Assembly: GCA_041662565.1 (NCBI GenBank)
Contig: JBAZSE010000005.1
Span: 402-64,401 of the forward strand
Direction: 5' to 3'
Source of the DNA: Patescibacteria group bacterium
GTDB lineage: Bacteria; Patescibacteriota; Patescibacteriia; UBA1558; UBA10009
Length of the DNA: 64,000 nucleotides
Positions 1,651 to 61,760 of the stretch are shown here, piece by piece; the first letter of the stretch is position 1, and every line of letters starts with the position of its first letter. The notes under the pieces are model-generated. The model saw nothing but the letters and a program-made list of their open reading frames with translations. It ran no database searches and was not told the origin of the DNA. The translations under genes and the position numbers were made by a program.

Positions 1651-2328
1651 ATGTCCATTTTTTTAAATACCGAGGCCATTGTTTTAGCCAAATTGCCCCT
1701 TAAAGAGGCCGACCGTTTATACATTTTATTCACTCCCGAATTCGGCAAAATAGAAGCGCAAGTAAAATCGGCGGTTACCAGCAAAAGCAAATTAGCCGGA
1801 TCGTTAGAGCCGATTTCGCAAGCTAAAATAATGATTGTTAAGGGCCGGCACCTTGAAAGCGTAGCCGGTGCTCAGCTGTTACAGCGTTTTAATTTTAGCG
1901 AGCCCTTAATTTTTGGCCAAATCGGTTTGGTTAGGGAATTATTTATTAAATTGCTTAAGCCCGAAGTTAAAGAGCCCGTGTTGTATCAAAATTTATTAAG
2001 TTATCTTTCTGCCATGTCCGGAAGCGCCGAACTTGAAGCCAAAAGATTTTTAACACAAAGATTTATTTGGCAACTCCTTAATATCAGCGGTTTTAGCGGA
2101 ATAACTGATGATACCTTGTATTTGCATTCTGCCCATGGCCAAAATCAGGATATTTCCGGTTTGGATTTACCAACCCGGGAGTTGCTAAAAAACTGCCTCT
2201 TGCTCGAACCCCAACCTTTACAAGTGGCTGATAATTTGTTACAAAAACTAGAGAACTTTACGCGAACATATTTAAGGCAGATTTTAGAGCGGGATTTAAA
2301 TTCATTTTATTTTAATCTATCACTTTGA
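1651..2328 (+). CDS. recO: DNA repair protein RecO (no zinc-finger cysteines)
   Basis: The N-terminal OB-fold pattern (EAIVLAKLPLKEADRLYILFTPEFGKIEAQVKS) resembles RecO. It is 225 aa. The stop TGA overlaps the next start (TGATG). Confidence 0.6.
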   Translation: MSIFLNTEAIVLAKLPLKEADRLYILFTPEFGKIEAQVKSAVTSKSKLAGSLEPISQAKIMIVKGRHLESVAGAQLLQRFNFSEPLIFGQIGLVRELFIKLLKPEVKEPVLYQNLLSYLSAMSGSAELEAKRFLTQRFIWQLLNISGFSGITDDTLYLHSAHGQNQDISGLDLPTRELLKNCLLLEPQPLQVADNLLQKLENFTRTYLRQILERDLNSFYFNLSL

Positions 2329-4226
2329 TGTTTAACGATAATCGGAAAAAAAATCACGGGCTGGTTGATTTGCGATCAGCCAATGTGGTTAAAAAAGCTG
2401 CCACCTCTGCCCCAAAGCATGATGATTTTTTAAGCACGCCCCACGGCCCGGAACACCGTAAAATTACCCGCCGGCCGATTAAAAAGCGCTCGTCTTTTTT
2501 ATTGTTTTTAATCGTTTTACTGCTTGTTTTAGCCGGCGCTTCTATTGCCAGTTTTTTTATCTTTGATCAAGGAAAAGGCGATCAATCATTGCGCTTAACT
2601 TTAGCCGCCGCTAAAAGCGTTTCTTCGGGGGAAGAAGTAACCCTGGAAATCGGCTACGAAAATTTGGATACCATTGCTTTACAAAAAATGCAGGTGGTGG
2701 TGGAATATCCCAAGGGCTTTTATTTTAATTCCGCCTCACAGGAACCCGTTAATCAAGAGAGTAATATTTGGAATTTGCCGGATTTGGGAGTTGGACAAAA
2801 AGGTACGCTTTCTATTAATGGTCAGTTGATTGGCAAGGTAGAGGAAAATAAAGAATTTAAAATGACTTTTCAGTATCGCCCGAGTAATTTTAATTCCGAT
2901 TTCAGCGAAACTCTTGCCAAAGCCATTAAGATTAGCCAGACCTTGTTTCCTGTAAATTTAACGGCACCTGAAAAAATTGAAGAAGGCCAAACAGTAAATT
3001 TTAAAGGCGATTTTAAAAATGAAGCCAAGCAGGATTTAAATAATTTATTTTGGAGTTTTGATTTAGGCGAAGCTTTTATGCCTTTGTCTTTAACTCCAAC
3101 CACTTCCATAAACTACCAATGGTCTTTACCCGCATTGCCACCAGGTGAAAAAAAAGATATTTTGGTTGAAGGAAAAATAAATTCCGCAGTTGCCAACCCC
3201 TTGCCTTGGTATTTTAAAATCTGGCAGAAAGTTGATTTTAAAGGCAATCAGCAGGAACGTATTCTATACGAGCAATCAGGCCAAGTTGAAGTTGTTGCGC
3301 CGGTTTTAAAAGTTGGCTTGGAACTTTCTTCACCCGATAAAAAAATCAATTGGGGCGATGAAGTTGATTTAAAGCTGACTTACGAAAATATAGGCAAGAT
3401 TGATGTTAAGGAAGCGGTGTTAAAATTAGCTTTAAACCAGTATATTGATTGGCCAAGGTACAAAAACCAAACCAATGCCACCATAGATGGTAACACTTTA
3501 ATTTGGCTTTCCAAAAGCGGAAATGCCACTGTTGGCCTTTCAAATATCCCAGTTGGCACAAAAGGCGAACTTTTGATAACCGTACCGTTTGTTTTGGAAC
3601 CTAAGGATTTAATGGATTATTCGCCCGATGAAGCCAAGTTGGAGGCAACAGCTTCGGCTATGATTAAATATAATGATCAGGAGTTGAATTTTAACAGCGA
3701 AAAATTGCTTTTGCCTTTAATCAGTGCGGCGCGTTTGCAGGCCGAGGCCAGGTATTATTTGGATTCAACCCCGCTAAGCGGGGCAAGTACCAAAGTAGGC
3801 AGCGGTCCTTTGCCTCCGGTAGTTGGTCAAGAAACAAAATATCGGATTTACTGGAAGCTATTTACCGGCTCAAGCGGTTTAAGCAACGTGGCGGTTAAAG
3901 CCAGCTTGCCTTCTTATATTAATTTTGTTGGGGGCGCTGATAATCCCACCTTGGGCACACCTTTAAAATTTGATTCCGCCACGCGTGAAGTTTCGTGGGA
4001 AATTAATGAGGCAGCGCCTAACACCGGTTTAATGGCTAGTTTTGATGTTAGTGTTAAACCCTCAACCGATCAGGTTAATCAATTGCTAATCTTAAGCAAT
4101 CCCGCCATGCTTAACGCCCAGGAAAAAGATAGCAATAATTTTATTTCCAAAACCACAAATTTGTTAACTTCCGATTTAACAGCCGATTTGCAAGCCAAGG
4201 GCAAGGGCAGGGTAATGGTAAAATAA
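2328..4226 (+). CDS. Hypothetical membrane-anchored protein: basic cytoplasmic N-terminus, one TM helix, then repeated extracellular beta-sandwich-like (DUF11/CARDB-like) segments
   Basis: A hydrophobic helix (FLLFLIVLLLVLAGASIASFFIF) follows a Lys/Arg-rich N-terminus, and the extracellular part has recurring similar blocks. The ATG at 2328 is preferred over the TTG at 2325. Confidence 0.5.
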   Translation: MFNDNRKKNHGLVDLRSANVVKKAATSAPKHDDFLSTPHGPEHRKITRRPIKKRSSFLLFLIVLLLVLAGASIASFFIFDQGKGDQSLRLTLAAAKSVSSGEEVTLEIGYENLDTIALQKMQVVVEYPKGFYFNSASQEPVNQESNIWNLPDLGVGQKGTLSINGQLIGKVEENKEFKMTFQYRPSNFNSDFSETLAKAIKISQTLFPVNLTAPEKIEEGQTVNFKGDFKNEAKQDLNNLFWSFDLGEAFMPLSLTPTTSINYQWSLPALPPGEKKDILVEGKINSAVANPLPWYFKIWQKVDFKGNQQERILYEQSGQVEVVAPVLKVGLELSSPDKKINWGDEVDLKLTYENIGKIDVKEAVLKLALNQYIDWPRYKNQTNATIDGNTLIWLSKSGNATVGLSNIPVGTKGELLITVPFVLEPKDLMDYSPDEAKLEATASAMIKYNDQELNFNSEKLLLPLISAARLQAEARYYLDSTPLSGASTKVGSGPLPPVVGQETKYRIYWKLFTGSSGLSNVAVKASLPSYINFVGGADNPTLGTPLKFDSATREVSWEINEAAPNTGLMASFDVSVKPSTDQVNQLLILSNPAMLNAQEKDSNNFISKTTNLLTSDLTADLQAKGKGRVMVK

Positions 4227-4237
4227 GAAATTGTTCT

Positions 4238-4378
4238 TGCTTTGCTCCGGATGAAATTAAATTTTCCATACTCGCACCCTCCTTCGTCTCGCCAGGGTCT
4301 CGCCTGCAGCTCGCCCTGGCTCGCTTGGGGGCACCCGCTCGTATGAAGAAAATTTAATTTCATCCGTCGCTCGCAAAT
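4238..4378. repeat. GC-rich TIR-flanked palindromic intergenic element, family A copy 1
   Basis: Perfect 18-bp TIRs GGATGAAATTAAATTTTC / GAAAATTTAATTTCATCC. Core CCCTCCTTCGTCTCGCC, then stem GCCAGGG/CCCTGGC around loop TCTCGCCTGCAGCTCG. Confidence 0.8.
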
Positions 4379-4395: not shown

Positions 4396-5538
4396 ATGTC
4401 TTTTAAACTTTTAAAAACCAGTAAACATTCCCAAGCCCGCTTGGGTGTTTTAAAAACCGCTCATGGCAATATCCAAACGCCTTTTTTTATGCCCATTGCA
4501 ACACGGGGCGCTGTTAAAACCTTAAGGGCTTCAGACATCAAAAAATTGAATGCCGAAATTGTTTTGGGCAACACTTATCATTTATTTTTTAAGCCGGGTT
4601 TAAAGATATTAAAAAAAGCGCAAGGGCTTCATAAATTTATGGATTGGACTGGCCCTATTTTAACCGATTCAGGCGGGTATCAGGTTTTTTCGCTCGGGGG
4701 CAATAAGGATTTTGGCTCGTCTCATAAAAATTTGGTTAAAATAACTTCAGCCGGCGTGGAATTCAGATCGGTTTACGATGGCAGTAAACATTTGTTTACG
4801 CCCAAAAAAGTTTTGGAAATCCAGGCCATGATCAATTCCGACATTAGAATGGTTTTGGATGTTTGTTCGCCATCCAATTGTTCGCGCGAGCAGGCCGAAA
4901 AGGATTTGGAAATTACATTAACTTGGGCAAAGATCAGCTCAAAACTAATAACAAAAAATTCAAAACATTTATTATTTGGCATTGTTCAGGGCGCTTTGTA
5001 TAAGGATTTACGCTTAAAATGCGTTCAAGAGTTGGTTAAATTGAATTTCGACGGCTATGCGTTGGGCGGTTTGGCGGTGGGCGAAACACCCCAAGAAATG
5101 TATAAAGTTTTGGATTACGCCTCACCTAAAATGCCAGCAGATAAACCCCGCTATTTAATGGGCGTTGGTTACCCCGAGCAGATTGTGGAGGCGGTAAAAA
5201 GAGGGATGGATATGTTTGATTGCGTTATTCCAACCAGAGAGGCTCGTCATGGTAGATTATATTATTTTAATTTAAAGCCAAAAGCTAAAAACTTAAAGTT
5301 GGATAAAGATTTTTATCAAACTATTAATATAAAGTCGGAAAAATTTTCTAACGACATGTCGGCGATAAATGTAAATTCCAAAATTCCCGAACTTAAAAAT
5401 TATACCAAGGCCTACTTAAGGCATTTGTTTAGCGTGGAAGAACCGCTTGCTTTGCAACTTGCCACTTTAAATAATGTGGAATTTTATCTTCAGCTTATGG
5501 CTGAGATTAGAAACAGCATTAAAATTAACCGATTATAA
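4396..5538 (+). CDS. tgt: Queuine tRNA-ribosyltransferase
   Basis: Hallmark Tgt motifs are present: TPFFMPIATRGAVK, LGNTYHL, DSGGYQVFSL. Confidence 0.9.
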   Translation: MSFKLLKTSKHSQARLGVLKTAHGNIQTPFFMPIATRGAVKTLRASDIKKLNAEIVLGNTYHLFFKPGLKILKKAQGLHKFMDWTGPILTDSGGYQVFSLGGNKDFGSSHKNLVKITSAGVEFRSVYDGSKHLFTPKKVLEIQAMINSDIRMVLDVCSPSNCSREQAEKDLEITLTWAKISSKLITKNSKHLLFGIVQGALYKDLRLKCVQELVKLNFDGYALGGLAVGETPQEMYKVLDYASPKMPADKPRYLMGVGYPEQIVEAVKRGMDMFDCVIPTREARHGRLYYFNLKPKAKNLKLDKDFYQTINIKSEKFSNDMSAINVNSKIPELKNYTKAYLRHLFSVEEPLALQLATLNNVEFYLQLMAEIRNSIKINRL

Positions 5539-6901: not shown

Positions 6902-8284
6902 ATGACTAAAAACATTCAAGAAGAAGGTGCTATGGATAAACTGGTTTCTTTGGCCAAAAGGCGGGGTTTTGTTTTTCAATCCTCCGAACTTTACGGAGGC
7001 ATCAATTCCATCTACGATTTCGGCCCCTTGGGCGTGGAATTAAAAAATAATATCAAGCGTGAATGGTGGAAAGCCATGGTTCAATGTCGGGATAATGTAG
7101 AGGGCCTGGATTCGGGCATTTTAATGCATCCCAAAATTTGGGAGGCCAGCGGGCATTTGGCCGGTTTTACCGATCCCTTGGTTGATTGTAAAGCTTGCAA
7201 AAAAAGATTTCGAGCCGATCATTTGCTGGAATCCAAAGGTTTAAAACCCGATTTTAGACCGGTTAGTTTTGCCCAAGAAGGCATTGCCTGTCCGGAATGC
7301 GATGGCGAGCTTACCAGTGTTAGGGATTTTAATTTAATGTTTAAAACCCAAATGGGTGCGGTTGAGGGCCAAACAGCCGAAATATATTTAAGGCCCGAAA
7401 CCGCACAGGGCATTTACGTTAATTTTTTGAACGTTTTAAATTCTTCCAGGCAAAAAGTGCCGTTTGGCATTGCCCAAATCGGTAAGGCCTTTAGAAATGA
7501 AATAACCCCGGGCAATTTTATTTTTAGGATGCGCGAATTTGAACAGATGGAAATGCAGTTTTTTGTTAAACCCGAAGATGCCACCAAGTGGTTTGAATAT
7601 TGGCAGCAGCAAAGAATGAATTGGTATCTGGATTTAGGGGTTAATAAGGATAAATTAAAATTCAGGCAGCACCGTAGCGATGAATTGGCTCATTACGCCA
7701 AAGCGGCGGTTGATGTGGAATATGATTTTCCGTTTGATCAGCGTGAAATGGAAGGCATCCATAACCGCGGAGAATGGGATTTATCGCGCCACCAACAATT
7801 TTCCGGCAAAGATCTTCATTACCAGGATTTGTTAACCAAAGAAAAATTCATTCCTTACGTGATTGAAACATCCGGCGGTGTTGACAGGGCCACTTTAATG
7901 TTTTTGCTTAATGCCTATACCGAGGTAGAAACCAGAAGCGGGGATGAAGAAGCCAAGCATGAAACCGAGGTGGTGTTAAAATTGGATAAAAGATTAGCCC
8001 CGATTAAAGTGGCTATTTTACCCTTGTCCAAAAAATTGTCCGAACCGGCCATGGAGATTTACAAAGATTTACGCCAAAATTATCGCTGTGATTTTGATGA
8101 TTCCGGCAGTGTGGGCAAAAGGTACCGCCGCCAAGATGAAATCGGTACGCCGTATTGCATAACTTTTGATTTTGATTCGGTAGAAGACCATAAAGTAACG
8201 GTCAGGGATCGCGATACCATGGCGCAAGAAAGAATCGCTATTGCCGAGTTAAAGGATTATTTAAGAGAAAAATTAGGGTTTTAA
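6902..8284 (+). CDS. glyQS: Glycyl-tRNA synthetase (dimeric alpha2 type)
   Basis: Class II aaRS of the GlyRS alpha2 type: FQSSELYGGINSIYDFGPLGVELKNNIKREWW. Confidence 0.9.
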   Translation: MTKNIQEEGAMDKLVSLAKRRGFVFQSSELYGGINSIYDFGPLGVELKNNIKREWWKAMVQCRDNVEGLDSGILMHPKIWEASGHLAGFTDPLVDCKACKKRFRADHLLESKGLKPDFRPVSFAQEGIACPECDGELTSVRDFNLMFKTQMGAVEGQTAEIYLRPETAQGIYVNFLNVLNSSRQKVPFGIAQIGKAFRNEITPGNFIFRMREFEQMEMQFFVKPEDATKWFEYWQQQRMNWYLDLGVNKDKLKFRQHRSDELAHYAKAAVDVEYDFPFDQREMEGIHNRGEWDLSRHQQFSGKDLHYQDLLTKEKFIPYVIETSGGVDRATLMFLLNAYTEVETRSGDEEAKHETEVVLKLDKRLAPIKVAILPLSKKLSEPAMEIYKDLRQNYRCDFDDSGSVGKRYRRQDEIGTPYCITFDFDSVEDHKVTVRDRDTMAQERIAIAELKDYLREKLGF

Positions 8285-8286
8285 TA

Positions 8287-8425
8287 TTGCGAGCGACGGG
8301 TGAAATTAAATTTTCTTCATACGAGCGGGGCCCGCGAGCGAGCCCGGGCGAGTTTCAAACGAGACCCGGGCGAGACGAAGGAGGGTTGCGAGCATGGAAA
8401 ATTTAATTTTACCTGGAGCAAAGCA
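8287..8425. repeat. GC-rich palindromic element, family A copy 2 (inverted orientation relative to copy 1)
   Basis: About 90% identical to the reverse complement of 4238-4378, including flanks. The internal stem is GCCCGGG/CCCGGGC, a compensatory change relative to copy 1. Confidence 0.8.
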
Positions 8426-8439
8426 ATGATTGCTAAATT

Positions 8440-9708
8440 ATGTTTAAACAAGAAAAGTTAGCTAATGGCATCCAATTAATTACCGCGCATCGGGCCGATA
8501 CCCAGGCGGTTACTGTCTTGGTTTTGGTTAAAATCGGTTCCAGATATGAATCATTGGATTTAAACGGAGTATCGCATTTTGTGGAGCATTTGCTGTTTAA
8601 AGGCACGCGCAAGCGGCCAAACAGTTTGGCCATTAGCCGAGCTTTGGATGGCATTGGCGCCGAATATAACGCTTTTACCGCCAAAGATCATACCGGCTAC
8701 TATATTAAAGCCAATAGCGAACATTTGGATCTGGCTTTGGATATGCTTTCCGATATGTTTTTTAATTCCGTTTTTGACGCGCGCGAAATGGATAAGGAAA
8801 GGGGAGTGATTGTTGAAGAAATCAACATGTATAACGATAATCCCTTAATGCTGATCAACGATATTTTTGAAGAAACGGTTTTTGCCGGGCATTCGTTGGG
8901 CAGGCGGATTAGCGGGCCCAAAGAAAATATTTTAAAAAAAATCAGCACCCCAGGTTTGGTAAAATTTTATCGCGACCACTATTTAAATAACCAAATCATT
9001 GTTGGCGTGGCCGGAAATTTTAATGAAGATTCAATTATTAAAAAAATCGGCGGTTATTTTAACAAGCCCCTAGCAAGCCACAAAGGCCATTCATTTGCCA
9101 AATTTTCTTCAACCCAAAAATCCCCCCGAGTTAATTTGCATTTTAAAGACACTTCACAAGTTCAGCTGGCTTTGGGTTTTCCGGGTTTTAAAAATACCGA
9201 TCCTCGAGTTTACGCTTTATCATTGCTGGCGGTTATTTTGGGCGGCAATATGAGTTCGCGTTTGTTTACGGAAATCAGAGAAAAAAGAGGTTTGGCTTAT
9301 TTTGTTAGGGCCAGTGATAGTTTTTACGAGGATTGCGGAAATTTTGTCATTCAAGCCGGCGTGGAACTTAACAGTTTGGAAAAAGCCATTAAAACAATTT
9401 TGGATCAGTTAAAAAAAGTTACTAAGCAACCGGTAGGAGAGGCCGAACTTAAGCGGGCTAAGGAATTTTTAAAAGGCAAGTTTGTTTTGCAGCTGGAAGA
9501 TAGCGCCGCTTTAATCAGTTGGCTAGGTGAGCAAAAATTATTAACCGGCCGTTTGGAAACAGTGCAAGAAAAATTGGCTAAGATCAATCGGGTTACAGCC
9601 CAGGAGATAAAAAAAGTAGCGGCCGAAGTTATTAATTTGGCCAAGATTAACTTGGCCTTAATCGGCCCGTTTAAAGATAAAGAAAAATTTTTAAAATTAC
9701 TAAAATAA
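8440..9708 (+). CDS. M16 family (insulinase/pitrilysin-like) zinc peptidase
   Basis: Inverted zinc motif HFVEHLLFKGT (HxxEH) and a two-domain M16 architecture. Confidence 0.8.
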   Translation: MFKQEKLANGIQLITAHRADTQAVTVLVLVKIGSRYESLDLNGVSHFVEHLLFKGTRKRPNSLAISRALDGIGAEYNAFTAKDHTGYYIKANSEHLDLALDMLSDMFFNSVFDAREMDKERGVIVEEINMYNDNPLMLINDIFEETVFAGHSLGRRISGPKENILKKISTPGLVKFYRDHYLNNQIIVGVAGNFNEDSIIKKIGGYFNKPLASHKGHSFAKFSSTQKSPRVNLHFKDTSQVQLALGFPGFKNTDPRVYALSLLAVILGGNMSSRLFTEIREKRGLAYFVRASDSFYEDCGNFVIQAGVELNSLEKAIKTILDQLKKVTKQPVGEAELKRAKEFLKGKFVLQLEDSAALISWLGEQKLLTGRLETVQEKLAKINRVTAQEIKKVAAEVINLAKINLALIGPFKDKEKFLKLLK

Positions 9709-10773: not shown

Positions 10774-11445
10774 ATGTCCACATTATATATAGTAGCTACC
10801 CCGATCGGTAATTTAGAAGATATCACCTTAAGAGCTCTTAGAATTCTTAAAGAAGTTGATTTTGTATTGTGCGAAGATACCAGGGTTACGAGGAATTTAT
10901 TGGCACATTACCAAATTAATACGCCTACCTTGTCTTTTCATCAGCATTCCACCGGATTGGAAGTAAATAAGTTGATTAATTTAATTAGAGAAGGAAAAAA
11001 TTTGTCTTTGGTGACGGATGCCGGTACTCCCGGTGTAAGCGATCCGGGCGGAGTATTGGTGGAAAAGGTAATTAAGGAATTTGGCGATCAGGTCAAAATT
11101 GAAGCCATTCCCGGGCCTTCGGCAATCACAGCGGCAATTTCCATTGCCGGGTTGCCATTGGATAAATTTTTATTTTTGGGTTTTTTGCCCCATAAAAAGG
11201 GTCGGCAAACATTGTTAAAAGAAATCGCTAATTCAAATTACCCCGTTATTTTATACGAATCGGTCCACCGCATTGAAAAATTATTGGATGAGTTGTCTGG
11301 TAATAACTATCAGTTGGTAGTTGCCAGAGAATTAACTAAAAAGTTTGAAACAATTTACCGGGGAACGGCGGAAGAAATTAAAATCCAGTTAAAGCCAGCA
11401 GAAGTGAAGGGGGAATTTGTTGTAATAATTTCAAAAAATGAGTAA
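10774..11445 (+). CDS. rsmI: 16S rRNA (cytidine1402-2'-O)-methyltransferase
   Basis: LYIVATPIGNLEDITLRALRILKEVDFVLCEDTR is the RsmI/tetrapyrrole-methylase-fold N-terminus. Confidence 0.85.
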   Translation: MSTLYIVATPIGNLEDITLRALRILKEVDFVLCEDTRVTRNLLAHYQINTPTLSFHQHSTGLEVNKLINLIREGKNLSLVTDAGTPGVSDPGGVLVEKVIKEFGDQVKIEAIPGPSAITAAISIAGLPLDKFLFLGFLPHKKGRQTLLKEIANSNYPVILYESVHRIEKLLDELSGNNYQLVVARELTKKFETIYRGTAEEIKIQLKPAEVKGEFVVIISKNE

Positions 11446-12880
11446 AAAATTTTATATTACCACCGCCATACCTTATGTTAATGCCCGTCCGCATATTGGC
11501 TTTGCTTTGGAAGCAGTGCAGGCCGATGCTTTGGCTAGATATCATCGCACTTTAGGCGAGGATGTATTCTTTTTAACCGGCACGGATGAAAACAGCTTAA
11601 AAAACGTTCAAGCCGCGGAAAAAGAAGGCATTAGCGCGCAAGAGCTGTGCGATCGCAACGCCAAAGTTTTTTTGGAATTAAAAAACGCCCTTAATTTGTC
11701 ATTTGATTCATTTATTAGAACAACCGAAGAACGCCATTTTAGCGGGGCGCAAAAATTATGGTCTGGGTGCCAGCCACAAGATATTTATAAAAAGAAGTAT
11801 CAGGGTTTTTATTGCGTTGGCGGCGAAGCTTTTTATCTGGAAAAAGATTTAATCGAAGGGTTATGCCCGGAGCATAAAACCGCGCCCGATTTGATTGAAG
11901 AAGAAAATTATTTTTTCAAGCTTTCAAATTATCAGGATAAATTATTAAAATTAATTGAATCAGACGAGTATAAAATTACGCCAGCCACCAAAAAAAATGA
12001 AATTACCAGCTTTATTAAAATGGGATTGGAAGATTTTAGCATTTCCCGCTCAACTGCTCGGGCTCATGGCTGGGGAGTAAGTGTTCCAGACGATGCCTCG
12101 CAAATAATGTATGTCTGGTTTGACGCTTTATCTAATTATATTACAGCTTTGGATTATTCATCCGAAGGCGACTTATTTAAAAAATATTGGCCGGCCGATG
12201 TGCATGTGGTAGGCAAGGGGATTATCCGGTTCCACGCTGTTTACTGGCCAGCCATGTTAATGAGCGCCGGTTTGGAAGTTCCTAAAGAATTGTTTGTTCA
12301 TGGATATGTTAATGTTGGTGGAGAAAAAATGAGCAAGAGTTTGGGTAATGTGATTGATCCTTTTGAATTGGTTTCCAAATACGGCACCGATGCCGTTCGT
12401 TATTATCTGCTCAAGCAAATTCATCCGGTAGAAGATTCCGATTTTACGATTGAAAAATTTGAAGAAGTTTATAACGCGGATTTGGCCAATGGGCTGGGGA
12501 ACCTCGTTTCCAGAACAGCTAATTTGATTGAAAAGAATTTTGATGGGAAACTTAAAGCTCAAAACTTAATTGAGCTCAGCTCGATAGAGCTAAAAACTAA
12601 TTTTGATAAATATATTAAAGAATATAGATTTGATTTGGCGCTTAAGGAAATTCAGGAAATGATTACGGCTACCGACCAGCTGATTGATCAACAAAAGCCC
12701 TGGGTTTTGGTTAAAACCGATTTAAAAAAAGCAGAAGAAGTTTTGGTTCAGGCAGTTAGCCAAATTTTATCCGTAGCCGAAAGTTTAAAGCCATTTTTAC
12801 CTCCTACAGCGGATAAAATCATCGTTCAGTTTACTGCCGAAAAGATAGTTAAAGGCGAATCGTTGTTTCCAAGAATTTAA
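11438..12880 (+). CDS. metG: Methionyl-tRNA synthetase; carries an in-frame palindromic mini-element insertion at 12554-12604
   Basis: YITTAIPYVNARPHIGFA (HIGH region) and KMSKSLGN. The inserted peptide is ..KAQNLIELSSIELKTNF.. Confidence 0.9.
   Translation: MSKKFYITTAIPYVNARPHIGFALEAVQADALARYHRTLGEDVFFLTGTDENSLKNVQAAEKEGISAQELCDRNAKVFLELKNALNLSFDSFIRTTEERHFSGAQKLWSGCQPQDIYKKKYQGFYCVGGEAFYLEKDLIEGLCPEHKTAPDLIEEENYFFKLSNYQDKLLKLIESDEYKITPATKKNEITSFIKMGLEDFSISRSTARAHGWGVSVPDDASQIMYVWFDALSNYITALDYSSEGDLFKKYWPADVHVVGKGIIRFHAVYWPAMLMSAGLEVPKELFVHGYVNVGGEKMSKSLGNVIDPFELVSKYGTDAVRYYLLKQIHPVEDSDFTIEKFEEVYNADLANGLGNLVSRTANLIEKNFDGKLKAQNLIELSSIELKTNFDKYIKEYRFDLALKEIQEMITATDQLIDQQKPWVLVKTDLKKAEEVLVQAVSQILSVAESLKPFLPPTADKIIVQFTAEKIVKGESLFPRI
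12554..12604. repeat. Palindromic mini-element copy inserted in-frame within metG
   Basis: AAAGCTCAAAACTTAATTGAGCTCAGCTCGATAGAGCTAAAAACTAATTTT; both arms match the reverse complement of the 1602-1647 copy. Confidence 0.75.
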
Positions 12881-13053: not shown

Positions 13054-13620
13054 ATGTCTACCATTGATATCATTATAATCATCATCTTGGCGCTGTTTAT
13101 CTGGAAAGGCGTTAAACTTGGCCTAATTGAAGCAGTGGGCGGTATTATCGGCCTATTTATGGGTGCTTGGCTGGCCGGCCGCTATTATGCCCAAGCCGCC
13201 GAAATGATTAAAGGTCTGTTGTTCGGTTCGGAAATTTTAGCCAATGTTTTAGGTTTTATTTTGGTGTTTATCGTTATTAACCGAGGTATTGCTTTGTTGT
13301 TTTGGATTGCCGATAGGGTATTTCATATTATTGCCATTATTCCGTTTTTAAAAAGCATTAATTATTTTTTGGGCGGAATATTTGGATTAATTGAGGGTGT
13401 TATTTTTATCGGCATTATTGTTTTCTTTTTAACTTTGGTGCCTTTTACAGAAAAGTTTCAGGAAAAAATAGCCAGTTCCAGATTTTCCGGAATTTTTGCC
13501 ACGGTTGGTAAAATTGCCGATCCGTTTATTCCCGATACTTTAATAGATTTGCCGTTTGATTTACCCAATGTTGGAGATACTTTAAAAGATATTAATTTAA
13601 GCATTCCTCAAATGAAGTAA
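13054..13620 (+). CDS. CvpA family membrane protein
   Basis: A four-TM small membrane protein; the N-terminus IDIIIIIILALFIWKGVKLGLI is typical of colicin V production protein CvpA. Confidence 0.55.
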   Translation: MSTIDIIIIIILALFIWKGVKLGLIEAVGGIIGLFMGAWLAGRYYAQAAEMIKGLLFGSEILANVLGFILVFIVINRGIALLFWIADRVFHIIAIIPFLKSINYFLGGIFGLIEGVIFIGIIVFFLTLVPFTEKFQEKIASSRFSGIFATVGKIADPFIPDTLIDLPFDLPNVGDTLKDINLSIPQMK

Positions 13621-13627
13621 TTTTTTT

Positions 13628-14986
13628 ATGCTCATAGACACTCACGCTCATCTAAATTTTAGGGCTTACGATATTGATAGGGAAGAGATTGTTACACGTT
13701 GTGCCAAAAAGGGCATGGCAGTTGTTAACGTTGGCGCGCAATACCAAACCAGCAAGAGCGCGGCCGCGTTGGCATTAAAGAATGAAAATTTTTACGCCAC
13801 AGTGGGCCTGCATCCAATCCATGCTTTTGATGAAATTTTTGACGCGGCCGCTTACGAATCATTGTTAAACCCTAAAGTAGTCGGAATCGGCGAATGTGGT
13901 TTGGATTATTGGTGGTTTAAATACCTTAAAGAGCCCTATAAAATAGTTTTGTTGCACGGTTGGGGCGGTAGTAAGGATGAAAGGTTTTTTATTTGGCTGG
14001 ATGAAGAGCTGACTAAACTTGGTCACACCGTCATTCGCTTTAATTTTCCCGATACCGATAATCCCAATCAAGAAGCGTGGTTAAAAGAAATTAGCAAGCA
14101 AGTGGGCTATGTTAATGGCAAAACATTGCTAGTAGGTTTTTCTTTGGGCGGGGTTTCCATTTTAAGATTTTTGGAACAGTTGGATGAAGATGCAACCATA
14201 GCTGGTGCTTACTTGTTAGGAACTCCGGCTCAAAATCCGGGCTATCCGGAAATAAAAGATTTTTTTAAAACCGATTTTGATTGGCAACACATTAATTCGG
14301 TTTGTAAAAATTTTAACATTTACAGTTCCACTAATGATGAGGTGGTGCCCGCGGAGCATGGCTTAAAATTGGCGGAAAAACTTAAAACCGAGGTTAAATC
14401 CATTAAAGACGCCTGGCATTTTAATCTAGAAACCATTCCAGAATTGCTGATAAATATCAATGAAGATATTATTGAGGTTGAAAAAAATTTACCGACCATA
14501 GAAGGAGTGATTAAAAAACAGGAAGAAATTTTTATCCAACAAATCAAATTTGCCCAAAAATACAACCTTGCCTTAATGTTGCATGGTCGCAATGGCTTAG
14601 AGGGCAGGGATGTTTACGCCGAAATGCTGGAGATCCTTAAAAAGGAAAAAATTGAGCGGGCTGTTTTTCATTGCTATGGCGGAACGCTGGCAATGGCTCA
14701 ACAAATTGTTAAGGCCGGTTATTATATCGGTATAGATGGCCCGGTTACTTATAAAAAGAAATCGGAAGAACTTCAGACGGTTGTCAAGGAAATTCCTTTG
14801 TCCAGTTTGTTATTGGAAACTGATGCTTGTGGTCCTTATTTGACTCCAGAGCCATATCGAGGACAGCGCAATGAACCGATTTATATTGAGCTCATTGCCA
14901 GTAAAGTCGCCGAATTAAAGGGTTTGTCAAAAGATGAAGTTATTGAACAAACCTGGCAAAACGCTAAAAAACTTTTTAAAATTTAA
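13628..14986 (+). CDS. TatD-family metal-dependent hydrolase with an internally inserted YdeN/RBBP9-type alpha/beta serine-hydrolase domain
   Basis: TatD N-terminus (DTHAHL ... GIGECGLDY) and TatD C-terminus (LMLHGRNG ... FHCYGG ... LLETDACGPYLTPEPYRG). These flank roughly 195 aa that match the YdeN family (IVLLHGWGGS, GFSLGG, RFLEQL, STNDEVVP, HF). Confidence 0.8.
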   Translation: MLIDTHAHLNFRAYDIDREEIVTRCAKKGMAVVNVGAQYQTSKSAAALALKNENFYATVGLHPIHAFDEIFDAAAYESLLNPKVVGIGECGLDYWWFKYLKEPYKIVLLHGWGGSKDERFFIWLDEELTKLGHTVIRFNFPDTDNPNQEAWLKEISKQVGYVNGKTLLVGFSLGGVSILRFLEQLDEDATIAGAYLLGTPAQNPGYPEIKDFFKTDFDWQHINSVCKNFNIYSSTNDEVVPAEHGLKLAEKLKTEVKSIKDAWHFNLETIPELLININEDIIEVEKNLPTIEGVIKKQEEIFIQQIKFAQKYNLALMLHGRNGLEGRDVYAEMLEILKKEKIERAVFHCYGGTLAMAQQIVKAGYYIGIDGPVTYKKKSEELQTVVKEIPLSSLLLETDACGPYLTPEPYRGQRNEPIYIELIASKVAELKGLSKDEVIEQTWQNAKKLFKI

Positions 14987-14992
14987 TTTTTT

Positions 14993-16048
14993 ATGGAAAT
15001 ACTATTAATTATAACTTTAGTAGTCATTGTTGCGGGCTTTGCCGTTGTCTTTGTTTTCTTAAATAAAAAACCGGTTGAATCGAATAAAAATGACCAATCC
15101 ATGTTAATGCTGCAAAACCAGCTTAACGAACTTAATAAAACGCTGGATAGCAAATTGCACCAATCATCGCAGGTTATGCAACAGCAGTTTTCACAATCCG
15201 CCAACATTATTCGTGATGTTACCGAGCGTTTAACAAAGCTGGATGAAACCAATAAGCAGGTGGTGGGTTTTGCCGATCAGTTAAAATCGCTTCAAGATAT
15301 TTTAAAAAATCCCAAACAGCGCGGGGTGGTAGGGGAGTATTATTTGGAAACTTTGCTAAAAAACGTTATGCCGCCCGGCAGTTACCAAATGCAATACGAT
15401 ATGGGTGAGGACGAAAAAGGAAATAAATTAATTGTTGATGCCATTGTGAGGGTTAAAGATAAAATTATTCCCATTGATTCAAAATTTTCTTTGGAAAATT
15501 ATAACCGTTTGGTGGTGGAGCATAATGAAGCCGAAAAAGATCGCTTGGAAAAATTGTTTGTCGGAGATTTAAAAATGAGGATTGTCGAAACTTCCAAATA
15601 TATCCAGCCAAGCAAGGGCACCATGGATTTTGCCTTCATGTTTATTCCGCACGAAGCCATTTATTATGATTTATTAATCAATAAAATCGGCGCGGTAACC
15701 GAAGATACCGAAAATTTAATTCAGCGGGCTGCGGGCAAATACAAAGTTATTATTGTTTCGCCAACTTCCTTTTTGGCCTATTTGCAAACTGTTCTGCAAG
15801 GTTTGCGGGCTATGCAGATAGAAGAATCCGCCAAAGAGATTCGCAAGCGAGTGGAGTTATTGGGCAAGCACTTATTAAGTTACGATACTTATTTGCAAAA
15901 ATTAGGCAGTAATTTGGGCACCACGGTAAATATGTACAACAGCGCTTATAAAGAATTCGGTAAAATAGAAAAAGATGTGGTTAAGATCGCCGGCGGAGAG
16001 GCCAAAATCGAGCCCTTAGAGATAGCCAAACCTAAATTAGACGAATGA
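14993..16048 (+). CDS. rmuC: DNA recombination protein RmuC
   Basis: An N-terminal TM helix, a long coiled coil and the RmuC C-terminal domain (FAFMFIPHEAIYYDLL). Confidence 0.75.
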   Translation: MEILLIITLVVIVAGFAVVFVFLNKKPVESNKNDQSMLMLQNQLNELNKTLDSKLHQSSQVMQQQFSQSANIIRDVTERLTKLDETNKQVVGFADQLKSLQDILKNPKQRGVVGEYYLETLLKNVMPPGSYQMQYDMGEDEKGNKLIVDAIVRVKDKIIPIDSKFSLENYNRLVVEHNEAEKDRLEKLFVGDLKMRIVETSKYIQPSKGTMDFAFMFIPHEAIYYDLLINKIGAVTEDTENLIQRAAGKYKVIIVSPTSFLAYLQTVLQGLRAMQIEESAKEIRKRVELLGKHLLSYDTYLQKLGSNLGTTVNMYNSAYKEFGKIEKDVVKIAGGEAKIEPLEIAKPKLDE

Positions 16049-17955: not shown

Positions 17956-18219
<264 letters not shown>

Positions 18220-18286
18220 TCGATTTACACTCAGAAGGTTTAAATTTTTTGGCCTTCTGAAGTAAGAAGATTATTTAAAATTTAAA

Positions 18287-18441: not shown

Positions 18442-18939
18442 ATGGAAGAACTTATAAAAACATTTCACATTGATTGGAAATTGTTAGTTGCTCAACTGGT
18501 AAATTTTGGCATTGTTTTGTTTGTCATTTGGCGTTTTGCGCTTAAACCTTTGTTAAAAATCATGGATAAGCGCACTAAGGAAATAGAAAAAAGCTTGGCT
18601 GATGCCCATACAATAGAAGATAATTTGGCTAAAAGCGAAAAAGCGCGGGAGGAAAAAATTTTAGCCGCTAAAAAAGAAGCTCAAGAAATTATCCAAGCCG
18701 CCCGAGAAATGGGCAAAACCCAAGGCCAAGATTTGGTGGATAGTGCTAAGAGGGAAGTGCAAACAGTGATTGCCGCGGCTAAAGAGCAAATTGCCGGCGA
18801 AAAAGATAAAATGCTTTTGGAAGTAAAAACAGAAGTCGGCCAGCTGGTTATTATGGGTGCTAAAAAGATTTTAAGCGAAGTAGTGGATGAAAAAACCAAT
18901 GGCCAGATTATTGATAATATTTTAAAGAAGATAAAATAA
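18442..18939 (+). CDS. atpF: F0F1 ATP synthase subunit b
   Basis: An N-terminal TM helix followed by a long charged helix, in operon position. Confidence 0.8.
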   Translation: MEELIKTFHIDWKLLVAQLVNFGIVLFVIWRFALKPLLKIMDKRTKEIEKSLADAHTIEDNLAKSEKAREEKILAAKKEAQEIIQAAREMGKTQGQDLVDSAKREVQTVIAAAKEQIAGEKDKMLLEVKTEVGQLVIMGAKKILSEVVDEKTNGQIIDNILKKIK

Positions 18940-24744: not shown

Positions 24745-27700
24745 ATGACTTACGCTGATTCTCTTAATCCGGAGCAAAAAAAGGCCGTAGAATACACCAA
24801 GGGCCCGCTATTAATCGTGGCCGGCGCCGGTACCGGTAAAACAACGGTTATCTGCGAACGGATCAATTTTTTAATTACCAAAAAAAATTTACAGCCCAAT
24901 CAAATTTTAGCCCTAACTTTTACCGAAAAAGCCGCCGCCGAAATGGAAGAAAGGGTGGATAAAGCCCTGCCTTACGGTTATATCGATTTATGGATTTCCA
25001 CCTTCCACAGTTTTGCCGAAAGATTATTACATGAGCATGGTTTGGATATCGGCTTAAGCGATGATTTTAAATTATTGGATCAAACCGCTTCCTGGCTGTT
25101 GGTGCGCAATAATTTGGATAAATTCAATTTGGATTATTACCGACCGCTGGGCAATCCCAATAAATTCATCCATGCGTTGTTAAAGCATTTTTCCAAATGC
25201 AAAGATGAACTTATCAAACCAAAAGATTATTTGGACTACGCTGAATCATACCGTTTGGATAATGATTTAAGAAAAGATGAATCCGCCTTCGCCAAGGCTT
25301 CGTCGGACCAAGGGGATGCCGCCATGGAAGTTAAGCGTTTGGAAGAACTAGCTAATGCTTATCATGTTTATCAGCAGTTGTTGCTGGATAATAATTATTT
25401 GGATTTTGGCGACTTAATTAATTATGTGTATGAGCTTTTTTTAAAGCGTCCGCAAATTTTAAAAAAATACCAAGAGCAGTTTAAATACATTTTGGTTGAT
25501 GAATTTCAGGATACCAATTACGCCCAGTACCAATTAATCAAGCTTTTGGCCGGAACAAAAAATAACGTCACGGTAGTGGGGGATGACGACCAATCAATTT
25601 ATAAATTCCGCGGGGCTTCTATTTCTAATATTTTGGAATTTAAAAAAGATAACCCCAAATGCTTGGAAATTTATTTAACCACCAATTACCGGACCAAGCA
25701 GAATATTTTGGATGTTGCCTATAAGTTTATCCAGCTTAATAATCCCAATCGGTTGGAAGCGCAGTTAAAAATCAAAAATAAATCGAGCTCAGCTCGACAA
25801 AGCTCAAAGCTCAAGACTCCAGCCAAAAGTTCAAGATCAAAATTTACCAAAGAGTTAATCGCTTCCAGAACAGGGCAGGGGATTATTGAGCATTTGCACG
25901 CGCCAACGCTGGATGACGAGGTGGCAATGGTGATCAATAAAATCGGCCAGCTTTATCAAAAAGAACAGGGTCTTTCGTGGTCCAATTTTGCCATTTTAGT
26001 TAGAGCTAACGATCAGGCCAGGCCGTTTATCGAGGCCCTGGAAAGAGCGGCTGTGCCTTACCAATTTGTGGCTTCCCGCGGGCTTTATGCCAAACCCTTG
26101 GTGTTAAATTTAATTGCTTTTCTGCGCTTGTTGGATAACTACCATGAATCCGATGCTATGTACCGCTATTTAACTTTACCGATTTTTGCCTTACCTCAAG
26201 CGGAATTGATTAAAATCACCCACGAAGCCAATAAAAAAAGATGGACTTTATACGAAACCGTTAAACAGGTTCGTTACTTATTGCATCTATCGCCTGATGC
26301 GCAAAAAGGTCTGGATGTGGCTTTAAATTTTTTGGAAAAATATCTGGCCCGCGCCAAAACGGAAAAATGCAGCCGTTTGGTTTTTGATTTTTTAAACGAA
26401 TCAAATTATTTAAAATATATCGATACCTTACCCGAAGGCAAAAAGCGCCAAGAATTTTCTTATCTTTCCCAGTTTTACAAGCGCATTAAAACTTTTGAAG
26501 AAATCAATGATGATAAATCGGTTAAAAATTTCCTCAACCAGTTGGGTTTGGAATTGGAATCAGGCGAGCAGGGTGATCTGGCGGCCTTAAACGAAGATGA
26601 AGGTCCGGAAATGGTTAAAGTGATGACGGTGCACAGTGCCAAGGGTTTGGAATTTAAATATGTTTTTATCGTTAATTTGGTGGATATGCGCTTTCCCACT
26701 CGTGAGCGGCACGATCCTATCCAATTGCCCGATAAATTAATTAAAGAAATTGTGCCGGAAGGGGATATTCATTTGCAGGAAGAAAGACGATTGTTTTACG
26801 TTGGTTTAACCCGTGCTCGCGACGGTTTGTTTTTAACTTCGGCCGAAGATTACGGCGGGGTTAAAAAGAAAAAGATTTCCGTTTTTTTAACCGACCTTGG
26901 GTTCAAGCAGCCGGAGCATTTAACTTTTGTTAAAGAAAAATTGGAAACAGTGGAACAAGTGCAAGGTACTGCCAAAGAAACGATTAAAGAATTTTTGCCA
27001 GCCAAATTTTCTTTCACCCAAATCAAGGATTTTCTTGCTTGTCCTCGGTCGTATTATTACAAATACATATTAAAAGTCCCTATGCAGGGTAATAATTATT
27101 TTAGCTTTGGTTCTTCCATTCACCTGTCTTTGCAAAAATTTTACGAAGAAGTCAAAAGAAGAAAGGGAAGCGCGCAAACCGGTTTGTTTGGTCCGGTTTC
27201 GCAACCGAATTTGTTTGGCCAGAGTAATGTTTTAACTCAAGGGGACCCCTCGACGCGGCTCGGGGCAGTTCTCAAATCCTCTAGCCCAAAGTTAATTCGC
27301 GATTTAATTAGTTTAGAGGAGTTAATTAAATTTTACCAAGAGAACTGGATCGAGGACTGGTATGCTTCAAAAGAGCAGAAAGAAAAATATTTCAAATTAG
27401 GCAAGGAAATTTTAAAAAACTTTTACCATAGCGATTATTTGGAGCAATCCAATCCGGTTTATTTGGAAAAAGGTTTTGGTATTAAAGTGGGTGAATTTAG
27501 TTTAACCGGTAAAATTGATAGAATAGACCGCGTGCAAAACGGTTTAAAGATTATTGATTATAAAACCGGCCAACCCAAGGAAAAATTGGAAGCCGATGAT
27601 AAAGACCAGTTGTTAATTTACCAAATGGCTGCTGCGCAATTGTTTAACGAACCAATAGGTGAGCTGGCTTATTATTATTTGGAAAACGATACTCAAGTGG

Positions 27701-27837
27701 TTTTTTTGGGTAAGGAAAAGGATATGGAAAAATTGCAAGAAAAAATTATCACCACCATCAATCAAATCAGAGATTTTGACTTTTTGGCCTTTGTAGAGAG
27801 CCACGGACAGTGTGATTATTGCAAAGAGATTATTTAA
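24745..27837 (+). CDS. UvrD/PcrA-type SF1 helicase fused to a C-terminal RecB-family PD-(D/E)XK nuclease (AddA-like). It carries an in-frame palindromic mini-element insertion at about 25775-25830.
   Basis: Walker A AGAGTGKTT, helicase motifs, a nuclease motif GKIDRIDRV...IIDYKTG, and Cys residues (CPRSYYY, CDYC) suggesting an Fe-S-type nuclease domain. Confidence 0.8.
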   Translation: MTYADSLNPEQKKAVEYTKGPLLIVAGAGTGKTTVICERINFLITKKNLQPNQILALTFTEKAAAEMEERVDKALPYGYIDLWISTFHSFAERLLHEHGLDIGLSDDFKLLDQTASWLLVRNNLDKFNLDYYRPLGNPNKFIHALLKHFSKCKDELIKPKDYLDYAESYRLDNDLRKDESAFAKASSDQGDAAMEVKRLEELANAYHVYQQLLLDNNYLDFGDLINYVYELFLKRPQILKKYQEQFKYILVDEFQDTNYAQYQLIKLLAGTKNNVTVVGDDDQSIYKFRGASISNILEFKKDNPKCLEIYLTTNYRTKQNILDVAYKFIQLNNPNRLEAQLKIKNKSSSARQSSKLKTPAKSSRSKFTKELIASRTGQGIIEHLHAPTLDDEVAMVINKIGQLYQKEQGLSWSNFAILVRANDQARPFIEALERAAVPYQFVASRGLYAKPLVLNLIAFLRLLDNYHESDAMYRYLTLPIFALPQAELIKITHEANKKRWTLYETVKQVRYLLHLSPDAQKGLDVALNFLEKYLARAKTEKCSRLVFDFLNESNYLKYIDTLPEGKKRQEFSYLSQFYKRIKTFEEINDDKSVKNFLNQLGLELESGEQGDLAALNEDEGPEMVKVMTVHSAKGLEFKYVFIVNLVDMRFPTRERHDPIQLPDKLIKEIVPEGDIHLQEERRLFYVGLTRARDGLFLTSAEDYGGVKKKKISVFLTDLGFKQPEHLTFVKEKLETVEQVQGTAKETIKEFLPAKFSFTQIKDFLACPRSYYYKYILKVPMQGNNYFSFGSSIHLSLQKFYEEVKRRKGSAQTGLFGPVSQPNLFGQSNVLTQGDPSTRLGAVLKSSSPKLIRDLISLEELIKFYQENWIEDWYASKEQKEKYFKLGKEILKNFYHSDYLEQSNPVYLEKGFGIKVGEFSLTGKIDRIDRVQNGLKIIDYKTGQPKEKLEADDKDQLLIYQMAAAQLFNEPIGELAYYYLENDTQVVFLGKEKDMEKLQEKIITTINQIRDFDFLAFVESHGQCDYCKEII
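25775..25830. repeat. Palindromic mini-element copy inserted in-frame within the helicase-nuclease gene
   Basis: AAATCGAGCTCAGCTCGACAAAGCTCAAAGCTCAAG; core TCGAGCTCAGCTCGA is a perfect palindrome. It encodes the low-complexity peptide NKSSSARQSSKLKT. Confidence 0.7.
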
Positions 27838-35000: not shown

Positions 35001-35918
35001 ATGCCAATCCAAACTACCAAGCATAAAAATGTTACTTGGGTAAATATTGAAGAACCCAATGATGAAGATATAAATTATTTAGCCAAAAATTTTCATTTTC
35101 ATCTTTTGGATTTGGAGGATTTGGGCCACGAGGCCCAGAGGAGCAAGCTGGATATTTATCCCGATTACGCTTTTATTATTTTGCGTTTTCCCGTAACTTA
35201 TAAGGATACAAATTTAATCGGATCGCATGAGCTGGGTATTTTTTTGGGCAAAGATTATTTAATAACTATTCAAAAAAAGAAGATTACTTCTTTGCAGGAT
35301 TATTATAAAAAAGTTTTGGCCGATCCAAAACTTATGGAAGAGGTTTTTGGTGGCCGTCCTGCCCTGCTTTTGTATAATGTTTTGGATGAAATGTATCATG
35401 CCACCTTATCTTTAACCGATTGGCTTTTAGCAGAAATTAACCAGGTTGAAAAAGAAGTTTACGATGAAGAAACTAAAACCGTGGTTAAAACGCTCGCTTT
35501 GCTTAGGCGCAATGTTTTGACCTTTAAAAGCATCATGGAACCCCAGCGTTTGGTTATCAGGACTTTGGTAAATTTACAAAAAGATTATTTAAGCAAGGAA
35601 TTTGAATCATATTTTGACGATATTGCCGACTATGTAGAAAGAATCAATAATTTGTTGGAAAACAGCAAAGAACTGGTAGATGGCTTGCATGCCACCAACG
35701 AATCCTTAACTTCTTACCGTTTAAACAGAGTTATGAGGATTTTAACCATTTTTTCTGTTTCCTTGCTGCCCTTAACTTTGCTAACGGGCATTTGGGGTAT
35801 GAATTTGCAATCACTGCCTTTAATTCATGACGAGACATTTATTTGGTATATTTTTGGCGGTTTAGCCATTGTTATTATCAGTATTTTTATTTGGATGAAG
35901 AAAAAGAATATTATTTAG
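35001..35918 (+). CDS. corA: Magnesium/cobalt transporter CorA
   Basis: GMN motif (GIWGMNL) before the two C-terminal TM helices. Confidence 0.85.
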   Translation: MPIQTTKHKNVTWVNIEEPNDEDINYLAKNFHFHLLDLEDLGHEAQRSKLDIYPDYAFIILRFPVTYKDTNLIGSHELGIFLGKDYLITIQKKKITSLQDYYKKVLADPKLMEEVFGGRPALLLYNVLDEMYHATLSLTDWLLAEINQVEKEVYDEETKTVVKTLALLRRNVLTFKSIMEPQRLVIRTLVNLQKDYLSKEFESYFDDIADYVERINNLLENSKELVDGLHATNESLTSYRLNRVMRILTIFSVSLLPLTLLTGIWGMNLQSLPLIHDETFIWYIFGGLAIVIISIFIWMKKKNII

Positions 35919-36030
35919 CCCTTGCCAGTTTTTTAATTTAAAAATTTCAATAAACGATGTAGGGATTGGTTTTAAACCTGTCCCTACATTTTGTTTTACG
36001 AAAAATGTTGTAAAAAAACTGGCAAGGGCT
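35917..36030. repeat. AT-rich TIR-flanked ~115-bp element downstream of corA
   Basis: Perfect 17-bp TIRs GCCCTTGCCAGTTTTTT / AAAAAACTGGCAAGGGC enclosing the hairpin TGTAGGGA...TCCCTACA. Confidence 0.6.
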
Positions 36031-36077
36031 AAATATTTGTGTTAAACTGGTATAAGTAACACATAATTAAAGGAAAA

Positions 36078-41548: not shown

Positions 41549-41578
41549 CCCAGCCCTTCGCAAAGGGCTGGGTTTTTT
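41549..41578 (+). terminator. Rho-independent terminator after rplA
   Basis: CCCAGCCCTT-CGCAA-AGGGCTGGG followed by TTTTTT. Confidence 0.8.
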
Positions 41579-48489: not shown

Positions 48490-48726
48490 ATCAGACGGCG
48501 CTAACGTAAAAATAAAAAAATTTGTAGCCGAGGACCGTTTAAGCCTTATCAAACGTGGCTTGAGAAAATTCAGAACGGCGGGGATAACTTAAATGAAAAA
48601 ATCGCAATTGATTGGCGCGTTCCGCAGGCAAGAATTTTTTTATTTTTACGATTAGCTATACCTAATTTAACGATGTGTGGCGCTTAGCGCCACAACCCCA
48701 GCGCTAAGCGCTGTGGATAAATACTA

Positions 48727-49891: not shown

Positions 49892-50034
49892 AACAGTTTT
49901 TAGCTGGTTAGTTTGAATTAAAAAAGCCCAGCCCTTTTTAAAGGGTTGGGCTTTTAATTAATATATTTGAATTTGTATTTTAGACCTGAATTTGCTATTA
50001 TTACTCTAAATTTAGAGGTTATCGGTAAGAGCAC

Positions 50035-61454: not shown

Positions 61455-61760
61455 TTAATTATCCGATTTGTTTTTTTTGGCAGCGGTTTTTTTGGCCTTT
61501 TTTTCCGCCACGTAATCAGCTACTTTTTTGCCTACTTCCATAACCGCGGCAAAAGTAGTGCCAAAATTAGCCACTTTTTCTTTGGATTTATCAAAAAAAT
61601 CTTTAATAGCATTTAAAGTGCCGGTAAATGTTTCCATGACCGAATTTATTTTTTTTAAAATCATGGCAAAATAATAAATCACCCAGCACAAAAAAATGGT
61701 AAACCATAAAACGCAGAAGGCGATTACTATATTTAATAGATCCTGGGAATTTTCTAACAT
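61455..61760 (-). CDS. Hypothetical small membrane protein with a Lys-rich C-terminal tail
   Basis: A single TM helix (VIAFCVLWFTIFLCWVIYYFAMIL), then an amphipathic region ending KKAKKTAAKKNKSDN. Confidence 0.45.
   Translation of the reverse strand: MLENSQDLLNIVIAFCVLWFTIFLCWVIYYFAMILKKINSVMETFTGTLNAIKDFFDKSKEKVANFGTTFAAVMEVGKKVADYVAEKKAKKTAAKKNKSDN

Follow-up and report, generated by a model that had tools for sequence, protein, structure and literature searches.

Dispersed hairpin repeats with covarying stems and conserved tandem G·A pairs in the gene spacers of a Patescibacteria genome

Results

A repeat family in the spacers of housekeeping genes

The element at positions 8287-8425 (copy c2) begins 2 nt past the stop codon of a class-II aminoacyl-tRNA synthetase (aaRS) gene (6902-8284), in the sense orientation, and is followed after 14 nt by an M16 peptidase gene (8440-9708). 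A preliminary description of this DNA had reported that c2 is about 90% identical to the reverse complement of 4238-4378. Comparison of the two sequences bore this out, with 125 identical positions over 139-141 nt (88-90%) and a likeness that takes in the TTGC...GCAA ends. Five full copies and two short relatives were found in the window, by which we mean the whole 64-kb stretch of DNA that was analyzed:

8287-8425, plus strand: copy c2, the copy flagged initially, subfamily A; 131.3 bits against the covariance model
4238-4378, minus strand: copy c1, subfamily A; 134.5 bits
12889-13026, plus strand: copy c3, subfamily B; 133.9 bits
18286-18422, minus strand: copy c4, subfamily B; 132.4 bits
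61786-61936, minus strand: copy c5; 119.4 bits
54181-54272, minus strand: short family member of 92 nt, with an A/T-tract outer stem as in the full copies; 25.8 bits
43662-43745, minus strand: short relative of 84 nt in the thyA-folA spacer, with the B-type terminus AGCGAGGCCGAGCAAGAAAAATTT

The covariance model was built from the five full window copies, which score 119-135 bits against it, and it also flags both short relatives. A degenerate core pattern matched exactly the five full-copy sites, with 0.00 matches expected from 100 shuffles. The elements are noncoding, about 130-150 nt long and GC-rich, and they form islands of 52-62% G+C in the short spacers of an AT-rich genome (the window has about 40% G+C).

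All flanking genes that were scanned against Pfam were housekeeping genes, and copies were located inside essential operons (atpE-atpF, metG-cvpA, thyA-folA and the arg genes). Copy c1 lies antisense to both of its neighbors, a DUF11 protein gene (2325-4226) and tgt (4396-5538), and c3 lies in the sense orientation between metG (11438-12880) and cvpA (13054-13620). Copy c4 interrupts the genes of the ATP synthase operon in antisense orientation, with atpE (18007-18219) on one side and atpF (18442-18939) on the other. Copy c5 lies upstream of a gene for 101 aa (61455-61760, minus strand), at a distance of 26 nt, and this gene in turn precedes dnaE; in c5 one CGAG block is replaced by an additional side hairpin, GGGCGCA-acatga-TGCGCCC. 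The 92-nt member contains six CGAG and no CTCG, and in the 84-nt relative the outer CGAG blocks are Watson-Crick paired (CGAG/CTCG).

A pattern scan of 185,579 species genomes yielded 51 matches. The covariance model retained one, at positions 80-217 of L023, a Komeilibacteria metagenome-assembled genome (MAG), and dropped the other 50 as chance matches in high-GC genomes. A metagenome scan identified five contigs, all of sample Ga0082335, with five full copies whose neighbors are arg-operon genes, glycosyltransferase genes and a VanW-domain gene; these contigs also hold two elements with the outer arms of the family and unrelated cores. With these six copies from outside the window, 11 full copies from three genomes were analyzed. 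Three further loci (L073-L075) represent the same strain at 99.9-100% identity and contribute no further copy. Pairwise identity among the copies is 58-93%, the copies fall into few subfamilies, and arms and cores have been swapped between family members. A scan of viral contigs gave no match to the family, and BLAST against the phage and plasmid collections likewise gave no similar sequence. The sole Rfam match in the window was a tRNA-Arg; the elements matched no Rfam family, and when they were searched permissively (E up to 10) the best score was 20.2 bits against a threshold of 33 bits (E=0.26).

Gene calls were also found within the repeats. An ORF of 94 aa (4079-4363, minus strand) starts inside c1 and runs through it, and is almost certainly a false ORF arising from the GC-rich repeat; in L058, a 29-aa gene was called inside c5. 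For annotation, GC-rich repeat islands can thus produce false ORFs.

Orientation of copies and comparison with relatives

Relative to their flanking genes, six of the 11 copies are in the sense and five in the antisense orientation, and within operons copies lie 2-11 nt from stop codons. An IS200/IS605-style strand bias was rejected, as c1 (-), c2 (+), c3 (+) and c4 (-) occupy both strands within 15 kb. TIGR-type and CRISPR-type arrays were likewise rejected, since the copies are dispersed single units and not tandem.

The nearest relatives of the window genome belong to Candidatus Komeilibacteria. In a comparison that is one between species with diverged spacers (MetRS 72-80% identical), metG and cvpA were separated by 18-21 nt in L059 and L062; in L062 the aaRS gene overlapped the M16 gene and the atpE-atpF spacer measured 60 nt, and in L066 the aaRS and M16 genes were 3 nt apart. 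With its filters off, the covariance model detected no family member in the 98 kb covered by six syntenic loci of relatives. A further locus, L055, is syntenic with 39.4-50 kb of the window, and its thyA-folA spacer is occupied by a full element of 129 nt, oriented like the 84-nt relative of the window. This shared family member could reflect long residence rather than recent movement.

Other orthologous spacers in the relatives hold unrelated palindromes, such as one with the ends GTCATTGCGAG...CTCGCAATGAC. Palindromes with these ends form a separate repeat family of related Komeilibacteria (L059, 6755-6845; L061, 4650-4790 and 9810-9890), and they begin with bases similar to ATTGCGAGCGA, with which c1 and c2 start. 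A terminator-like hairpin (cagaagg...ccttctg) is conserved after atpE, at 18222-18265 of the window and 17976-18012 of L062. It lies on the upstream side of the site at which c4 is inserted, so that a small structure was already present in this spacer before the insertion. In L062, genes for a DNA methyltransferase and an MjaV-type restriction endonuclease (13428-15375) are inserted between tatD and rmuC, and this pair is absent from the window, L059 and L066.

Hairpin architecture

Each of the five window copies folds as a single long hairpin (RNAfold z-scores of -4.0 to -8.3). The hairpin consists of an outer A-tract/T-tract stem followed by short G+C stems, which are separated by internal loops in which 5'-CGAG-3' faces 5'-CGAG-3', and its tip is formed by a 3-bp stem with a triloop. 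Terminal inverted repeats are present, in that the outer arms pair up to the last 3-6 nt. A single bulged A recurs on the 3' arm (in CGAGA, and as the A within GGAGGG), and across subfamilies the core is more conserved than the arms. In c2 the following parts were identified:

8343-8374, plus strand: apical module, in the order stem, CGAG, loop, CGAG, bulged A, stem, CGAG
8343-8348 and 8365-8370, plus strand: the two apical stem arms, each CCCGGG
8349-8352, 8360-8363 and 8371-8374, plus strand: apical CGAG blocks
8353-8359, plus strand: loop TTTCAAA, with the bulged A at 8364
8380-8385, plus strand: GGAGGG, downstream of the apical module

The GGAGGG was considered as a Shine-Dalgarno sequence and rejected: the next start codon is 50-60 nt away, the ATG downstream is not conserved (it is absent from c3), and five of the 11 copies are antisense.

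Covariation of the stems

The apical stems quoted in the preliminary description (c1, GCCAGGG/CCCTGGC; c2, GCCCGGG/CCCGGGC; c4, GTCGGGG/CCCCGAC; c5, GCCTAG/CTAGGC) are present exactly in the sequence. The accompanying statement that both strands change together in every case is wrong: in c3, a copy that was not cited, GCCTGGG/CCCTGGC contains a T·T mismatch. The loop that these stems were said to share is the same in length and position, but its sequences differ (CTGCAGG, TTTCAAA, CTACAAG, TTCCAGA and TTTTAGA).

The 11 full copies were aligned with MAFFT without reference to structure, and the hairpin that was scored comprised 42 pairs, namely the RNAalifold consensus and one stem pair that RNAalifold had dropped. 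A standard pair was formed in 90.4% of cells, compared with 81.7% after shuffling and 37-54% when the partners were slid. Changes on both sides were found in 18 of the 42 pairs, against 10.4±1.8 in shuffles (none of 500 reached 18) and 3-8 with slid partners; these figures are to be read with the caveats that the copies are paralogues from few master copies, so that independent events are few, and that with the covariation tool related sequences may exceed shuffles even without structure, a relatedness that the slid-partner controls preserve. Counted by cells, changes on both sides numbered 42, compared with 15.3 in shuffles and 3-13 with slid partners. The covariation first noted in a few copies was thus not dissolved by the addition of more.

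In the apical helix, four of nine pairs carried changes on both sides, and 94.9% of cells were paired. Seven haplotypes of the 6-bp apical stem were observed (CCAGGG, CCCGGG, CCTGGG, TCGGGG, CCGGGG, GCCTAG and GCCTGG), with Watson-Crick replacements at four of the six positions, and a count by hand gave at least seven double changes versus one single change. Between c1 and c2, the differences comprised three compensatory double changes, two changes from G-C to G·U and one A·C mismatch, the rest being in loops. The most frequent apical stem, CCTGGG/CCCTGG, carries an uncorrected T·T at stem position 3 (pair 81/104) in five of the 11 copies, these being c3 and four of the six copies of the related genomes. 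About 17 cells were G·U, seven of them from the loop-closing pair, and about eight were A·C.

These data support the conclusion that pairing is maintained well beyond chance along the whole element, and not in the internal stem alone. Given the 18 of 42 pairs with double changes, the 90.4% pairing and the Watson-Crick replacements in the apical stem, neutral decay of a dead palindrome is unlikely. The stems alone cannot separate RNA from DNA as the working form.

Several apical stems (c1 and c3 of the window, and L023) carry CCWGG (CCAGG or CCTGG) on both arms. The T·T variant has CCTGG on each arm, and a CCWGG site is thus kept on both. The presence of the site on both arms may be a coincidence or may have a link to methylation.

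Tandem G·A pairs and strand asymmetry

The strongest evidence for a strand-specific structure, which the preliminary description overlooked, is the conserved tandem G·A pairs of the CGAG/CGAG blocks. Each element contains 6-11 CGAG versus 0-1 of the complement CTCG, whereas a plain DNA palindrome would contain the two in equal number. The CGAG blocks stand at mirrored positions of both arms and so form the series C-G, G·A, A·G, G-C. When 14 family members were folded to minimum energy, GA/GA accounted for 44 of the 48 internal loops of 2x2 nt; on the opposite strand these loops turn into TC/TC.

The GA dinucleotides of the CGAG blocks were the most conserved columns of the alignment (mean pairwise column identity, 0.955), followed by the C and G that flank them (0.939), the Watson-Crick stem (0.705) and other unpaired positions (0.618). 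Folded as RNA, the CGAG strand was 7-17 kcal/mol more stable than its complement, and with DNA parameters it was 1.5-6.3 kcal/mol more stable. The four central CGAG blocks are spaced by 10, 11 and 11 nt in every full copy, and the remaining spacings are 4, 5, 13, 18 and 25-32 nt. Stability in RNA as well as in DNA is an established property of tandem sheared G·A pairs when their context is pyrimidine-GA-purine, and 5'-CGAG-3' is one classical context of such pairs in RNA. Collectively, the asymmetry between CGAG and CTCG, the GA/GA loops, the identity of the GA columns and the stability of tandem G·A pairs indicate that the hairpin structure is strand-specific and that its apparent mismatches are its most constrained part.

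Other palindromes in the window

Further inverted repeats were observed in the window. At 35909-36037, the corA-panD spacer is filled by a long palindrome of another type, AT-rich and 129 nt in length (RNA minimum free energy, -58.6 kcal/mol), with perfect outer arms of 23 nt (TTAGCCCTTGCCAGTTTTTT.../...AAAAAAACTGGCAAGGGCTAA), an inner GTAGGGA...TCCCTAC hairpin and no CGAG. An element of 159 nt at 48499-48657, after the gene at 47719-48489, has A/T-rich inverted arms of 33 nt (48505-48537 and 48618-48650) and contains GCCGAGGAC, which it shares with the CGAG family; it may be a modular relative with a different core.

A small palindrome centered on ATCGAGCTNAGCTCGAT occurs at 1598-1644, 12552-12598 and 25765-25811, the three sites being 64-81% identical. 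Two of the three lie within long ORFs, namely metG (11438-12880) and a gene for a UvrD/PD-(D/E)XK helicase-nuclease (24745-27837), and these palindromes could be due to chance or be a coding-compatible repeat. Near-identical GC-stem hairpins (CCCAGCCCTT...AAGGGCTGGG) at 41549-41578 and 49921-49950, beside T/A runs, look like ordinary intrinsic terminators in opposite orientations.

Comparison with named systems

The CGAG family resembles REPINs, the hairpin-forming REP doublets that RAYT (TnpA-REP) tyrosine transposases mobilize, in several respects. Both are extragenic, present in multiple copies, rich in G+C and about 100-150 nt long; in both, a single strand folds into one long imperfect hairpin with compensatory changes in its arms (PMC3116915); and both occur in either orientation with no obvious target-site duplication. 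The CGAG family differs from REPINs in its stereotyped tandem G·A internal loops and in its host, a bacterium of the Candidate Phyla Radiation (CPR), and it is not visibly made of two short REP palindromes. In contrast to REPINs, no GTAG-type REP head was conserved in the alignments of the copies, where the conserved tetranucleotide was CGAG. No RAYT gene was found among the Pfam-scanned genes of the window of about 64 kb and of the Ga0082335 loci. More broadly, no transposase (RAYT/Y1, DDE or other) was present among the Pfam-scanned genes of the window or beside the copies in Ga0082335 and related loci.

Like MITEs and palindromic repeats such as Correia, ERIC, RUP, BOX and Nezha, the CGAG elements are small noncoding repeats, dispersed over spacers and operons in either orientation, with inverted-repeat arms, presumed co-transcription and a modular make-up of arms and cores. 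Unlike those repeats, they show stronger conservation in the core than at the termini. Within the window, no parent insertion sequence sharing their ends was seen, and no consistent target-site duplication was detected, the flanks being AT-rich and often reading TAA on either side of the element.

Kink-turns share with the CGAG blocks the tandem G·A and A·G pairs flanked by a C-G pair. However, the defining 3-nt bulge of the kink-turn is absent from the family, whose loops are symmetric (2x2) with bulges of 0-1 nt; a single A bulge sometimes stands one pair from a 2x2 GA loop. As for intrinsic terminators, a GC stem followed by a U-tract was found at none of the elements, and after the inner stem an A-run precedes the T-run.

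Discussion

We regard the CGAG hairpin repeats as a new family and do not assign them to any named one. The account that we favor, with moderate confidence, is that they are lineage-restricted, non-autonomous mobile hairpin repeats, REPIN- or MITE-like, whose folded strand is recognized for copying. Compensatory changes have been described as "common" in REPIN hairpins (PMC3116915). Because such changes are normal in mobile hairpin repeats, the covariation observed here points to a constraint on the propagation of the element itself at least as much as to a function for the host. The simplest reason for the constraint on the hairpin is that copying or recognition acts on the folded single strand. 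The earlier conclusion that these are functional hairpins rather than the products of neutral decay is sound as regards structural constraint, but "functional" most likely means functional for the element.

We infer a mechanism of mobility that involves a single-stranded intermediate and a protein able to recognize the G·A motifs. The elements would be copied by an enzyme whose gene lies at another site in the genome. This enzyme would recognize the CGAG-bearing strand in its folded, single-stranded state, most plausibly as DNA that becomes exposed when the genome is replicated. Under selection, the master copies would keep their stems paired through compensatory changes and their G·A motifs invariant. 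Inserted copies would be tolerated in spacers only, where they would be passively co-transcribed in either orientation. It is possible, and we propose it tentatively, that the CGAG/CGAG tandem G·A pairs set along the covarying hairpin constitute the recognition code of a single-strand-specific CPR protein, either a non-RAYT mobilizing enzyme or an RNA-binding factor. If true, the family would represent a new system of hairpin elements that propagate themselves in bacteria whose genomes are very small, and its defining feature would be non-Watson-Crick pairs instead of sequence heads.

An alternative is that the elements are structured RNAs useful to the host, as mRNA stabilizers, processing sites or protein-binding platforms, with the G·A pairs as tertiary or protein-recognition elements. 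The great stability of the hairpin as RNA, with the CGAG strand 7-17 kcal/mol better than its complement, would suit such a role, as would the classical sheared context of CGAG in RNA, the placement of copies within operons close to stop codons and a core that is more conserved than the arms across subfamilies. Against this, the five antisense copies would give transcripts bearing CUCG/CUCG pyrimidine mismatches, a promoter and terminator scan placed no site in or beside the elements, and even the permissive Rfam search gave no match. In addition, the element is missing from these operons in closer relatives, where it is hence dispensable. Since transcription of nearly half of the copies would yield the wrong strand and the relatives manage without the element, we regard a host RNA function as unlikely.

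The CGAG blocks could instead be sites for a protein that binds double-stranded DNA, nucleoid-associated or partition-like, arranged as direct repeats on one helical face, with the palindromy incidental or serving a cruciform. The spacing of the central blocks by 10, 11 and 11 nt in every full copy, and A-tract/T-tract arms of the sort typical of bent DNA, are in keeping with this model. The other CGAG spacings do not fit a helical repeat, however, and every CGAG has a mirrored partner, which is explained by the fold and not by direct repeats. Such a model also has no need of covarying stems between the blocks, and we consider it improbable.

It is also very doubtful that the palindromes are neutral, with covariation produced by hairpin-templated repair or strand-switch mutation and by ancestry shared within subfamilies: although the copies are paralogues of few subfamilies (58-93% identity) with few independent events, and related sequences can beat shuffles without structure, the slid-partner controls gave 3-8 double-change pairs compared with the 18 observed, and templating of one arm by the other would turn CGAG/CGAG into CGAG/CTCG and thereby erase the conserved G·A mismatches, whereas the GA columns have an identity of 0.955 and CTCG occurs 0-1 times per copy.

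The family provides an unusually clean natural case of apparent mismatches that are conserved above the base pairs surrounding them. The conserved G·A pairs offer a simple handle toward a partner protein, and toward a decision between RNA and single-stranded DNA as the working form.

Proteobacteria and a few other groups are well known to carry dispersed repeats that form hairpins; for genomes of the Candidate Phyla Radiation, we found no description of such repeats in the literature searched. CPR genomes are about 1 Mb in size and are thought to be streamlined. The repeats in the spacers of essential operons, together with the differing palindrome families in relatives, suggest an active turnover of selfish DNA in these minimal genomes.
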